Shown: positions 1 through 62,851 of the stretch, piece after piece
How the letters are laid out: every line of letters begins with the position of its first letter
Position numbering within the stretch: position 1 is the stretch's first letter
NCBI GenBank assembly: GCA_964016885.1
Contig: OZ024744.1
Location: forward strand, 49,290,001 to 49,354,000
DNA length: 64,000 nt
Reading direction: 5' to 3'
Origin: Eledone cirrhosa
Taxonomy: Eukaryota
The notes under the pieces: model-generated
Told to the model about the DNA's origin: nothing
Seen by the model: only the letters and a program-made list of their open reading frames with translations
Databases searched by the model: none
Program-made: the position numbers and the translations under genes

Positions 1-477
1 CGCACGCCATTCATTTATATACATTCACATACGCATGAACTCGCGCACACGTACGTGTACCAGGCTCATATATACACATATACCAACGCACATACGAACG
101 TATACGCCTAAATACATATACATATATGAGTGTATACATATAATTATATATACATATATAATTACACACACATATATACATACATATATATATACACACA
201 CACACAATCCTACACATAAATACACATATGTTCAACACACGTACATATACCTATATACATACGTACACATATACACACATATACATACATACGTGCAAAC
301 ACGCATACACACACATACATACACATATGCATGCATATATGTGTATATATATAAATTTGCTCTAGGATTTTATATATTTTATATATATATTATCCTTATC
401 GAGCCCTCTTGGGATGTTAGTCTTCACATTTATATATATATATATATATATATATATTTATTAAAATAACAGATTAA

Positions 478-528
478 AGTTTAAGCAAAGAATCGCTGCT
501 TTCACCCTTAACGGGATCTTCTGAAACT
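478..528 (-). ncRNA. Type I hammerhead ribozyme motif, CAGAAGA core variant (pLTR copy 1)
   Basis: AGTTT-CAGAAGA-T CCC gttaa GGG T-GAAA-GCAG cgattct TTGC-TT-AAACT; all three stems pair. Confidence 0.65.
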
Positions 529-625
529 AACTAAGTCAATCTGTAAACGCAGAAGTGGATATTTCAAAAAACGTTGCAACCGGAGGAAGACAGGAAGACG
601 ATACTTTGGTTCGTGGAAACGTTCC

Positions 626-875
626 CTGGCAAAGAACGGGAAAAAACGATAATACGTCATTAATAGGAGCGGTGAAAAACAATTACAGGCAAAGACAAAA
701 ACCACGTTTATGGTATAAAAGAAGTCGTAGACTAATGTTCTCTTAGGTGGTTCATAGAGACGTTTTCTGGCAATGAACGGAAAAAACGAAGATAATACGT
801 CATATGTGGAGCGTGGAGAACAATTGCACGCAAAGACAAAACCACGAAAATGGTATAGCTGAAGTCGTAGAATAA
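626..875. repeat. Internal ~140-bp tandem duplication within the pseudo-LTR
   Basis: ctggcaaagaacgg...gaagtcgtagactaa (about 626-735) recurs diverged at about 767-875, and is mirrored in the second pLTR. Confidence 0.8.
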
Positions 876-58323: not shown

Positions 58324-61300
58324 CTGTCAAAATATAAAAAAAAACATGTATGTATGTATGTATGCATGTATATATGCGTGTATGTATGTAAAAGGTAAAC
58401 AGAAATAAGAAATGACACAGTACATTGAAGAAATATATTAGTTTAACGCTTGAAATATATATATAGTAGTTGTAATTGGTAGGTAAAAATATCGAAGGTA
58501 TAGAATAACCTAAGACCATAGGACGAGTTTGAGTACAATTATTAATGCCAGTTACAACAGCACCATACCAGGTATGTACGTTTCATTAGCCCTGAGGACC
58601 AATTGTTCAACCTGTGCTGATGAAAATAAACTGGCTGCTCTATACCTTGGATATTTTTACCTACAAATTGCTACTATATATTTATATATGTGTGTGAACG
58701 GAAATCCAACAACATATATATATATGTTGTTGTTGGACCTCTTGTTTTCCAACGATGTGTGCTCCAGTTGATTCAATCAATGAAACTGCCTACTTGTGGA
58801 ATTCACATGTCAGTGGCTGAGCATTCCACAAACATGTGCACACTCTCAACATATTTCTTAGGGAAATTTAGCACAACACAATGTGTGTTAATGCTGGCCT
58901 CTTGAATTACAGGTCCAACACAGGTTTACCAGCTGAGTGAGTTGGAGTAATGTAAAGCCTCATGCTAAAGGACACAATACAATATCCAATCCAGAGATTG
59001 CACTCATAACCTTATGATCATGAGACCAACACCCCAACCACTAAAGCACACACTTTCACATACATAGATATGTATGTATATAAACATATATACAGAGATT
59101 GATAAACATATAAGTATATATGTATATAAATATAAACATATTCATCATCAAACCCATGCTAGCATAGAATGGACATTAAACGATGATGATAATGATGATA
59201 CATATATTCTTTCATTCTTTTAATGGTTTCAGTCATTGGACTGCGGCCATGCTGGAGCACCACCCTAATATATTTTCTTTCAATTTTGTTGTAGTTTTAT
59301 GGCTGAAAGTTGGTCTATAATTGAGTTTGTAGCAGCTGATATTTCTTGAGTTATTGTATCCTTGTATGTATATATATGTGTGTGTGTGTGTGTGTGTGTG
59401 TGTGTGTGTGTGTGTGTGTGTGTGTGTGTGTGTGTGTGTGTGTGTGTGTGTGTGTGTGTGTGTGTGTGTGTGTGTGTGCGCGTGTGTGTGTGTGTGTGTG
59501 TGTGTGTGTGTGTGTGTGTATATATATATGTATATGTATACACACACACATAGATGGCCTGTTTCCCAGTGAACTGAAGAATATTTTGGAAAATCCCCAA
59601 AATCAACACCATTAGATTCTTGGCGCATACATGTGTGTGTGCGTGCGTGTGTGTGTGTCTGTATATATATATATATATATATATATATATACTCTAGAAA
59701 TTCTAGAGACTAAAGAATTCATGTGTATAAGTATATATGAAAGTACAGCTGAATATGTTTGTTTTTATATCTTCATGAGCATGTACTTATATACATATAT
59801 ATATATATATATATATATGATATATATATATGATATATATATATATTGAAATAGAAATAGAAGCTTCACCGTAATATTTTTTACTATAATATACTCTAAT
59901 AATGAGGCATATAAACCCAGGTTCGATTCCCATGTGTGCTGATACCCATCTTTTTCCATTCAGTGGGTTTATACACCCCATTATAAGACCATATTTTATA
60001 TGGTCTTATATGTATATATATATATATATATATATATATATATATATACAGAGGGAGAGAGAGAGAGAGAGAGAGAGAGAGAGAAAAGGTGAAGTTGGAA
60101 ATACCATGGAAAATATGTTTTAGGGTCTGTTTTTCTATTTTTTCCTTTCTTTCATTTGTCAAAGTAACATTATTGAAAAAGTGATAGGGACAATTCTTTT
60201 AAAAAGTTTTATAATTATATAAAGTATATAAAGTGTTACCAGTTTCGATGTATTAGTAAAATTCATCTTATCAAATGTTGAGTATTACAATTAAAAAGAA
60301 TTAATAAGAATTTAAAAAAAAAATTAAAGATTTAAAATTAAAAGGTAAGTTTTTTTTCATCACATATATATATATATATATATATATATATAGAAGCAGC
60401 TAGGTATGATATATCTTATTACTAATTATATCTAATGTTTCTTCTCTCTTCATAATGTATTATATAGCTCTGATACTGAATCAGTCTAATCCATTCGGAT
60501 TGGTTTGCCCCAGTTATTCATGGAGCAACATCGGTTGAGGTTGGTACCACTAACTCAGGGATATATGTGGATATATTCATGTGTATGTATGTGTCCGCAT
60601 GTATCTGTGTGTCTCTCTCTATATATTGTATATGTATATATATATATATATATATATATATATATACCATTTTCATAACTCTACCCAGCATTACTTTCAG
60701 CCTCCTAAAATTCTAACACACTACACCTACCCTACACTCCTACACCCTTTCCATAAATCCCACCCTGTACCCCACCCTTCTTGGTAAATTTCACCACTGT
60801 ATCTCCCATGCTTCGGGAAGTTCAGCTCTCCCACCTCAAAGCTCTGTTAAATCCCTCCATTCCACAACACACCTTTCAACTTTCTCACACTCTCTCCTGC
60901 CTTCTTTAGAGTAGTGAGGGCTCTTCAGCTTTGTCAGATATGATAACCTCCTTAGTGTTGTAATTTACATGACAAATACACCAAGTAGACTCTGTAAAAT
61001 GGTTGGTTATAGGAAGGGCATGCAGCCATAAAAAGACTGCTAAACAAAGAGTATGGATGACTCTTTGGCTGTGTCAATGACATAACAAACTCTCTAGAGC
61101 AGGTGACAATAAAATACATTTGGTAGTGAGTGAGAATATTTGTAATTAAGATGCATGACCCTGGCCTGGCTGAGCACCTAGTAGAGTATGGGATTATCAG
61201 TAAGATGGAGGCCCCCAGTCCATTTGAAAGGTCACAAGCCCTGCTGAGTTCTAACTCATTTTATAATGATCCAACCCTTCCTGGTACAGAAAATGAATAT

Positions 61301-61557
61301 TAAATGATGATGATGATGATGATAAACATAAACACATATACAGAAAATACATATAAATAAGTGGTATCTTTCATATATATATATCATCATCATCATCACT
61401 ATTTAATGTCTATTTTTCCATGCTTGCATGGGTTAGTTGGGTTGTCATGTTATGAGACAAGTCATGTCAAGTGAGCACGTCTTATACAAACAGATCTGCA
61501 TTTTGGCATGGTTTCTACAGCTGAAGCCTTGTTGTTGGGTTAGTGAGGGTCACTTGA

Positions 61558-61596
61558 TAGTGAGCACTTTCAGATTAATAATCCTTCATCAGACTA
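61558..61596 (-). ncRNA. Minimal hammerhead motif; inverted partial twin at 61883-61917 (+)
   Basis: TAGT-CTGATGA-a GGATT att AATCT-GAAA-GTGC-TC-ACTA. It lies in inverted arms at about 61525-61592 and 61883-61960. Confidence 0.7.
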
Positions 61597-62851
61597 GATT
61601 ATTCTTGGCTTGACAAATTCATTACCTGTTTCCATGTGTCCAGGTCACTCCGACGGTTTAGGGTAGTCACTAGCTTCCTAATAAAAGGAGCCTTTGCTCA
61701 TCATATGTCTACCTTTGCTCTGCAAGTATTTTTGTGATTATGCTTCTTCTACATATTTCTTTGTGTTGAAATATTGCACTTGGAAGTGTCATTTAAAAAT
61801 AAATGTTCTTGTATTCTGTTATGTAGTTGACATTGTGTAGAACTGATGTAGTTGGCTCTGCATGCACATTTCAACTCTTACACTGATGAAGGATTATTAA
61901 TCCAAAAGTGCTCACTATCAAGTGACCCTCACTAACCCATACTAACCTTGCAACAAGGCTCATATACTGTAGCAATGTGACCATTCACAGTATCAATACT
62001 AACATTAATCCTAATCCTAACTCTAACATTAACTCTAATTTTAATTCTAACATTTACTCTTACACATTTCTCTTCCTAAACTTCTACCTTCACCTAAACG
62101 AATAATAAAACGAAACCTATACCATTATTAAACAATTTTTATCTCATTTATATTATTTTATTATATTCTAGCTTCTCTCTTTTAGTTCCCTATAGCTCAC
62201 CTTTCTTCCCTTGCTCTGAACTGCATACACTACAAAAAAGAACAACAACTGCACAACCCACTACACACACACATATATATATATGTATATGTGTGTGTGT
62301 GTGTGTGTATTCTACTGTCAGTAAAACAATGTATCTAGATTCTTATTCAATACAATAAAGTTAATGATAACAATATCATTTCTTTATTTGATGCAATAAA
62401 ACTATAAAATACACAACATCATAAAAACAACTTTATCTGTGAGGATAAGTTTTTGTTTAATACAATAAATTAAATGCTTTAAATAGTATATATAAACATG
62501 TGAAGATGTGTGGCTTAGTGGTTACAGTGCTGGATTTACAACCATGAGGTTGTCAGTTCAATTCCCTGACTGAGTGATGCGTTGTATTCTTGAGCAAAGC
62601 ACTCAACTGTAGAAATGAGTTGCAATGTCACTGGTGCCAAGCTATATTGACCTTAGTCTTTACCTTGGACAACTCCAGTTGTATGAAGAAAGGTGACTGG
62701 CATGCATGGGCGACTGATGGTCTTCCACAAAAACACCTTGCCTAGACTTGTGCCTCAGAGAGGAACTTTCTTGGTGTAAATCCAAAGGTCATTCATGACT
62801 GAAAGGGGTCTTTACCCTTTATATATAAAGATATGATAAAAATTAACTTAC

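Follow-up and report, generated by a model that had tools for sequence, protein, structure and literature searches.

Penelope-like elements (PLEs) are known to insert at (TA)n targets together with an inverted, 5'-truncated copy and a tail on one side only (Craig 2021, PMC8557442). Hydra-clade PLEs are marked by a CxCx5C linker without a CCHH finger, and one of them, Penelope-13_HM, has an inverted 5'-truncated copy and a hammerhead ribozyme on both strands (Craig 2021); pairs of hammerheads on opposite strands, 100-700 bp apart, are also known in PLEs (Cervera and de la Pena 2014, PMC4209133). The optional one-sided tail reaches into the start of the open reading frame (ORF), and pseudo-long terminal repeats (pseudo-LTRs) have been linked to mobilisation in trans (Arkhipova 2013, PMC3846280; Frangieh 2024, PMC11167929). 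On AT-rich DNA, a PLE protein cleaves the two strands and extends each of them, and the tail is defined by its two start sites (Frangieh 2024). What mobilises animal retrozymes has so far been argued from co-occurrence and sequence kinship (Cervera 2020, PMC7229834; Li 2026, bioRxiv 10.64898/2026.07.22.740005). Here we analysed a window of 64,000 nucleotides (nt) of the Eledone cirrhosa contig OZ024744.1 (positions 49,290,001 to 49,354,000), in which an original prediction made from the letters alone had placed a dense system of ORF-less fold-back cassettes with hammerheads. These cassettes are very probably the 3' ends (pseudo-LTRs) of PLEs, each with a hammerhead or a piece of one, paired head to head mostly beside (TA)n, likely through the reverse transcriptase (RT) and GIY-YIG endonuclease of Hydra-clade and related PLEs.

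The locus resembles the published Hydra-clade PLEs, including Hydra-1_Obim and Penelope-13_HM, in its CxCx5C linker, the lack of a CCHH finger, the (TA)n targets and the hammerheads with a U.U at the foot of helix II; it differs from them in having no full-length copy in the window, in its longer tails and in the CAGAAGA core of one of its nine hammerhead families, family A (Craig 2021). As in the minimal hammerheads of metazoan PLE pseudo-LTRs, helix III is short and palindromic, most motifs are solo motifs of truncated PLEs and an extra base follows A9 (families B, C and H); unlike in those minimal motifs, helix III runs to its full 4 bp in families A, E and I (Cervera and de la Pena 2014). 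Inverted pseudo-LTRs, AT-rich targets, junction palindromes and partial tandems are shared with PLE insertions described before, beyond which the window offers several cassettes for arm-by-arm comparison and some junctions that lie on hammerhead helices (Arkhipova 2013; Frangieh 2024). The inverted, (TA)-flanked, head-to-head layout is known PLE biology; overall the window holds a mainly known pattern with new families of PLE ends and one likely PLE-mobilised retrozyme.

Hammerhead motifs in the window

The window is AT-rich animal DNA with many (TA)n and (CA)n tracts. It was scanned with a type I hammerhead descriptor, a CUGANGA...GAAA...UH core with helices I-III, which was loosened, once the motifs were known, so as to accept a U.U or a single additional base where helix II begins at its foot. 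An earlier, stricter scan had returned 4 sites. The relaxed descriptor found 8 type I hammerheads with a perfect core and all stems (plus strand at 4904, 50535, 54525 and 56321; minus strand at 35237, 50129, 56209 and 61558) and 13 sites with at most one core change. Thirty block-wise (local) dinucleotide shuffles gave a mean of 0.1 perfect sites (maximum 1) and 1.8 with at most one core change (maximum 7), and the reversed window held 1 and 3, respectively. The dense occurrence of motifs in the original prediction was borne out, far above chance. An Rfam scan of the window returned no match at the gathering score, and at E<=10 no hammerhead was found among the best 150 of 608 rows, which were microRNA-like and other hairpin matches, mostly on microsatellites. 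Minimum-energy folds of 13 short motif regions were mostly of non-hammerhead shape with weak z-scores, as expected for minimal motifs. The hammerheads of the window are real, dense motifs, and their self-cleavage is a prediction from sequence.

Fourteen of the 15 positions listed in the original prediction were recovered as intact, variant or decayed hammerheads. Six are perfect (4904, 50129, 50535, 56209, 56321, 61558), three have a U4A core (478, 3069, 44705), two keep an intact core but have damaged stems (26937, 49786) and three have lost one core base (37596, 44903, 61883). The remaining position, 55251, was rejected as a hammerhead. Hammerheads at 35237, 54525 and 3999 and truncated hammerhead 3' halves at 4302, 18627 and about 18889 had not been listed. 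Self-alignment with microsatellites masked sorted the motifs into nine families, A to I, and also confirmed the inverted arms.

Cassettes as probable PLE 3' ends

Families A, B, D and E, each with several copies, have two fixed 3' ends, one short and the other 39-83 nt longer. A short and a tail-bearing 3' end placed head to head, with the inverted copy 5'-truncated, make up 12 of the 13 delimited cassettes, the 13th being the family H cassette c61 (61530-61960). (TA)4 occurs within 20 nt of 19 of the 26 cassette ends against a background of 12%, and at both ends of 7 of the 13 cassettes against 7%; the test is partly circular because the cassette ends were placed by hand, and with this reservation the predicted (TA)n neighbourhood held.

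The link to a PLE protein is seen in cassette c1 of family A (462-3218, minus strand), a 5'-truncated Hydra-clade PLE. It consists of an ORF remnant (1489-2689), a 3' end that is the short one (462-909) and, head to head with it, an inverted copy (2689-3218) with a tail of about 78 nt; the arms are identical at 441 of 455 positions, and the descriptor scan placed a hammerhead in the inverted arm at 3069-3119 (plus strand) in addition to that at 478-528 (minus strand). The ORF has 47 homologs of about 500-1000 residues each, and in tblastn searches with these homologs similarity runs to the inversion junction at 2689, exactly where the ORF is cut. Both c1 and an element at 48.5 kb have the CxCx5C linker, no CCHH finger, and CxxC and CxH near the C-terminus; the region of the RWK and DKT motifs is truncated in these two copies and the motifs are present in many of the 47 homologs. 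No Pfam family was assigned to 5 full-length Hydra-type homologs, nor to 4 of 5 scanned PLE remnants, and no Hydra N-terminus was found on translation of nine family ends.

The proposed connection to PLEs stood, with families A and B attached to ORF remnants and that of A belonging to a Hydra-clade protein. The label ORF-less failed as a general one, since family A is joined to a Hydra-type ORF and family B to a GIY-YIG domain, with RT or GIY-YIG sequence in 462-3218, 3279-4188 and 35040-35681; it was right for family F, and the copies of families C, D, E, G, H and I are too short to judge their ORF content. Most cassettes probably have no ORF only because they are 5'-truncated.

The window ORF was aligned with 22 of its 47 homologs, and this alignment served to fetch related loci from metagenomes; the best 79 of 300 confirmed loci were taken, near-duplicates included. 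A perfect hammerhead on the sense strand was found in 54 of these 79 Hydra-type loci and in none of the reversed sequences; one of the 54 (L031) lies inside the ORF and is probably there by chance. The U.U at the foot of helix II, as in families A, F and G, was present in 29 of the 54 by a hand count of rows, and where the hammerhead lies upstream of the ORF (10 loci) the ORF begins about 150-275 nt downstream of it. Inverted arms were seen in 11 of the 79 loci, two of which (L043 and L059) are head to head at the hammerhead as in the window; several others are unrelated palindromes. As a separate observation, variants in these loci (L068, 2302-2345; L006, 2394-2436; L015, 1933-1978; L019, 1070-1307) comprise a U4G core, U3-A8 cores and a pair of different hammerheads separated by 200 nt.

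Origin of the head-to-head pairs

We reasoned that insertion would begin with the endonuclease cutting AT-rich DNA. Both cut ends would then prime reverse transcription, one at each fixed start point, giving one short and one tail-bearing 3' end; synthesis would halt at variable places, and short palindromes or natural hairpins, among them the hammerhead helices, would be where the two copies are joined. Five cassettes, namely c1, c2 (3279-4188), c3 (4208-4355), c4 (4738-5069) and the element at 47.8-49.7 kb, have their tail on the short arm, and their additional 5' sequence is on the long one. Because each arm holds sequence that the other lacks, a simple snap-back of target-primed complementary DNA is excluded for these five, whereas a hairpin that was trimmed later is not. 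We consider two-ended priming a rather probable origin of the head-to-head pairs.

The same elements might instead have formed their fold-backs by self-priming, in which a strand folds back at its 3' end and is copied to a hairpin that the endonuclease resolves at two staggered points, as already proposed in print (Arkhipova 2013; Craig 2021). Self-priming would account for five junctions with spacers of 0-5 nt (18626, 44753, 53822, 54465 and 56284), for the junction at 18.9 kb on hammerhead helix III, and for the three family E junctions, all of which lie inside the ribozyme. Together with the junctions of c44 (44608-44818) and c61, these three are on the hammerhead or at its edge. Self-priming is harder to reconcile with the five mismatched cassettes, where neither arm is a copy of the other, and with c54 (54234-54717), whose left arm derives mostly from a diverged subfamily, so we regard it as possible but not as the origin that we favour. 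The mismatched-arm cassettes offer a genomic route to decide between two-ended priming and self-priming, a question left open in Craig 2021.

The head-to-head layout would also affect the ribozymes. In read-through RNA entering from either side the antisense arm would be made first, and it is predicted to mask the hammerhead. By an equilibrium estimate, the cost of forming the hammerhead is 59-75 kcal/mol in whole c44, c50 (49914-50840) and c56 (56093-56514) against 1-8 kcal/mol for the sense arm by itself; for c4, in which the motif lies outside the reach of the inverted arm, it is 4 kcal/mol. If true, head-to-head masking would allow such insertions to persist in introns.

Family F as a likely PLE-mobilised retrozyme

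Family F is represented in the window by c50 (plus strand), which is built of an inverted copy with the short end (49914-50256), 1.4 head-to-tail units with a tail of about 55 nt (50257-50840) and (TA)n. Its monomer (50426-50842, plus strand) is 417 nt long with 35% G+C and, when circularised, a longest stop-free frame of 64 amino acids. A perfect Hydra-type hammerhead lies at 50535-50577 (plus strand), with a copy at 50129-50171 on the minus strand. The sequence passes both 3' end points and then re-enters its own hammerhead, where autonomous Hydra loci have the ORF instead. In public data, family F was found in 5,787 contigs of X1, in 29,908 of 12.47 million restriction-site-associated DNA (RAD) reads of X21, and in 13 and 9 contigs of two other organisms; such depth does not give a copy number, and none was derived from it. 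In 49 contigs of X1 and 1 of X4, tail sequence stands ahead of the unit start. Among the 40 variant rows listed, with 17 others beyond the listing, none falls inside the hammerhead core, and the helix I pair 50538/50574 has changes on both sides (phase not given). The region 50681-50842 was left out as a repeat in the read comparison. The exact family F pattern had no match in metagenome contigs, and the search of public runs listed no RNA run as carrying it; shares of 0.05-0.20 found in other organisms were left out of account. The circular fold of the monomer has a z-score of -6.4, which is inflated by self-complementary TA/CA tracts and was not used as evidence.

Like the non-LTR retrozymes (Cervera 2020; Li 2026; MRC1 of Chlamydomonas), family F is an ORF-less head-to-tail unit of a few hundred bases with low G+C, a type I hammerhead and a proposed PLE origin. 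A point of difference is its PLE-type inversion and tail signature, of which no description was found in the portions of the retrozyme literature examined. The window copy is not a two-ribozyme dimer, because its 1.4 units have one hammerhead per strand; Li 2026 calls active the retrozymes that have two or more consecutive units with complete hammerheads. Based on these data, family F is likely a high-copy, ORF-less and probably non-autonomous PLE-mobilised retrozyme. It would be an internally deleted Hydra-type pseudo-LTR copied in trans, that is, a non-LTR retrozyme. The fuller proposal, on which we are evenly divided, is that family F may be an abundant retrozyme with circular RNA, reduced from a Hydra-clade PLE, whose copies would bear a scar found only with PLEs (partial tandem, inverted copy, one-sided tail and (TA)n) and whose head-to-head layout would also silence the ribozyme in read-through RNA. 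To the question of the retrozyme mobiliser, family F contributes a signature at the insertion site, seen in a high-copy family; if the proposal is true, it would be structural proof that PLE RT and GIY-YIG endonuclease mobilise animal retrozymes.

In run X21, 10,100 reads depart from family F at 50599 and share another continuation, and many reads diverge upstream of 50530, which indicates several subfamilies with a common hammerhead.

Other explanations and points against the proposal

An improbable alternative for family F is that it is a satellite-like unit that originated in a solo pseudo-LTR and was multiplied through DNA recombination without an RNA step, an option raised in Li 2026. Its head-to-tail organisation and a TA/CA-rich part favouring slippage would fit such a unit; the window copy, however, has only 1.4 units with an inverted arm, a one-sided tail and a (TA)n flank, the inversion joints are many and different, and the ribozyme core is conserved.

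The original prediction had further suggested non-autonomous, miniature inverted-repeat transposable element (MITE)-like fold-back retroelements that transpose as fixed palindromic units with a recurring fold-back junction. The abundance and lack of an ORF of family F and the clustering of the three family E junctions in about 45 nt would suit such a class, which we nevertheless regard as very unlikely. Alignment showed that family A is joined within the RT in c1 but at hammerhead helix I in c44, and all window pairs of families B, D and E differ in their junctions as well. Among public reads and contigs, 11 opposite-strand joints of family F lead to 11 different positions between 50470 and 50652 on the side joined to, the other side being biased by the edge of the compared stretch and the RAD cut site. 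ORF sequence is present in three cassettes or copies. A fixed internal junction with equal ends in many copies was not found, and since junctions differ from copy to copy they do not define a distinct MITE-like fold-back class; what survives of the proposed retrozyme/MITE-like class is a single ORF-less, likely non-autonomous family, F. That the inverted arms are assembly artefacts and the motifs chance, for which only the empty Rfam result at curated thresholds speaks, is hardly credible given arms that differ by 1-23% with unequal ends, strand-switch joints in raw reads of another sample and the shuffle controls.

Several points weigh against reading the cassettes as paired PLE ends and family F as a circular-RNA retrozyme. 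The five junctions with spacers of 0-5 nt fit self-priming at least as well as two-ended priming. The window data link no autonomous partner to families C, D, E, F, G, H and I, family H has no (TA)n, and the tails, at 39-83 nt, exceed the 30-40 nt published for PLEs. The hammerhead of an Anolis PLE required protein and was dispensable for insertion in vitro (Frangieh 2024), and 8 of 9 Xenopus retrozyme dimers failed to cleave (Li 2026). The closed circle of family F is whole only in the window copy, because 50681-50842 was skipped in the read comparison, and no listed contig covers a whole unit.

The U4A core of family A

The hammerhead of family A at 478-528 has a U4A core (CAGAAGA), a U.U at 10.1-11.1 and a full helix III of 4 bp, with U at position 17. 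Its second insertion, c44 (minus strand), is a fold-back that starts at hammerhead helix I with the tail on the left, and it carries a U4A copy at 44704-44756 (minus strand) and a decayed copy on the plus strand. By alignment, position 4 is A instead of the expected U in all 4 arms of these 2 independent insertions. A CAGA core was absent from the 79 related metagenome loci, and CAGAAGA was absent from the published hammerhead table (Craig 2021). The U.U at 10.1-11.1 and a U4C change are on record for hammerheads (Perreault 2011, PMC3088659). A literature search for U4A cores or for these families found nothing, with most subscription papers outside its coverage, and the U4A core may already have been described. 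That it is an active natural variant seems unlikely.

Other cassettes and features of the window

The other cassettes and ends belong to families B to E and G to I. In family B, c2 (plus strand) has a GIY-YIG remnant at about 3372-3812 (Pfam GIY-YIG, E 5e-5), a 3' untranslated region with a decayed minimal hammerhead (3999-4041) and the short end, and an inverted copy (3279-3371) with a tail of about 54 nt. The end and tail at 3279-3355 (minus strand) contain a frame that opens with an ATG and runs for 26 codons, which would fit a tail that forms the beginning of the ORF. A diverged copy at 35040-35681 (minus strand) has the GIY-YIG C-terminus, a hammerhead at 35237-35279 and a tail, with no inverted arm seen. 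The plus-strand cassette c54 has a palindromic junction at 54465, a perfect minimal hammerhead at 54525-54567 and the short end on the right; its left arm (54234-54464) is like the right arm for 52 nt and then continues as a diverged family B end with a tail, a switch that reflects either two templates or insertion into an older copy.

Family E includes c3 (plus strand), with a hammerhead 3' half (GAAA, 4-bp helix III, GUC site) that is 5'-truncated in loop II and a tail on the inverted left arm; c18 (18570-18762, plus strand), a symmetric fold-back centred on 18626 in loop II with the tail on the right; and a cassette at 18869-19009 (plus strand) with its junction on hammerhead helix III and the tail on the right. 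Family D is represented by c4 (plus strand), with a perfect hammerhead at 4904-4947 and an inverted copy (4738-4825) with a tail of about 44 nt, and by a related fold-back at 22156-22420 (plus strand), truncated downstream of the hammerhead with the tail on the right. A 3' end of family C at 37505-37680 (minus strand) has a decayed minimal hammerhead at 37596-37631 (G12A), and alignment gave related ends at 37353-37431, 42408-42452, 44819-44975, 49769-49902 and 58394-58457.

The family I cassette c26 (26686-27272, plus strand) has an inverted copy at 26686-26751, a tail of about 83 nt on the long arm and a hammerhead at 26937-27016 with an intact core, a long loop II, a GUC site and two helix I mismatches. 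Cassette c56 of family G (plus strand) is a 99% fold-back with a 1-nt spacer at 56284, a 39-nt tail on the right and perfect Hydra-type hammerheads at 56209-56247 (minus strand) and 56321-56359 (plus strand). The family H cassette c61 (minus strand) has a hammerhead at 61558-61596 (minus strand) and an inverted arm that begins at the core (61883, G12 lost). It lies between two exons of an M14 carboxypeptidase on the minus strand (62796-63056 and 58190-58330, by Pfam, the second match below the cut-off), and its intact hammerhead is on the sense strand of the intron between them. The end of c61 and its right flank (61925-62060) contain CTAACC-like repeats, and c61 is the only cassette without (TA)n.

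A decayed Hydra-type ORF remnant lies at 5374-6904 (minus strand), with no hammerhead found beside it, and tblastn with relatives located further Hydra-type remnants at 24133-24780, 29776-30415, 31035-31453 and 48550-48993. The last, a linker and GIY-YIG remnant, belongs to the element at 47782-49720 (minus strand), where 97%-identical inverted arms without a hammerhead flank it. Nested insertions make up 47008-51623, with outer arms at 47008-47345 and 51264-51623 (85-89% alike) and the inner 97% arms around the GIY-YIG remnant; family C and F cassettes sit in TA-rich parts of this block. Further fold-backs without a recognisable hammerhead, at 53776-53869, 51752-51939, 42098-42242, 19291-19428 and 52712-52768, are possibly ends of other PLE families, and the fold-back at 19.3 kb is interrupted by a 180-bp repeat.

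Other repeats in the window include remnants of long interspersed nuclear element (LINE)-type RT at 56481-57725 (plus strand, with a PHD finger) and 42771-44302 (minus strand), with decayed relatives at 8432-8737, 36862-37122 and 53206-53738. A dispersed repeat of about 180 bp, resembling a short interspersed nuclear element, occurs at 19419-19597, 25573-25742, 27808-28003, 30477-30884 and 55807-55986 (74-93% alike). An AAC-rich tandem array of 66-bp units (40124-41167) has about 12 copies that are 93% alike, with several frames open on both strands.

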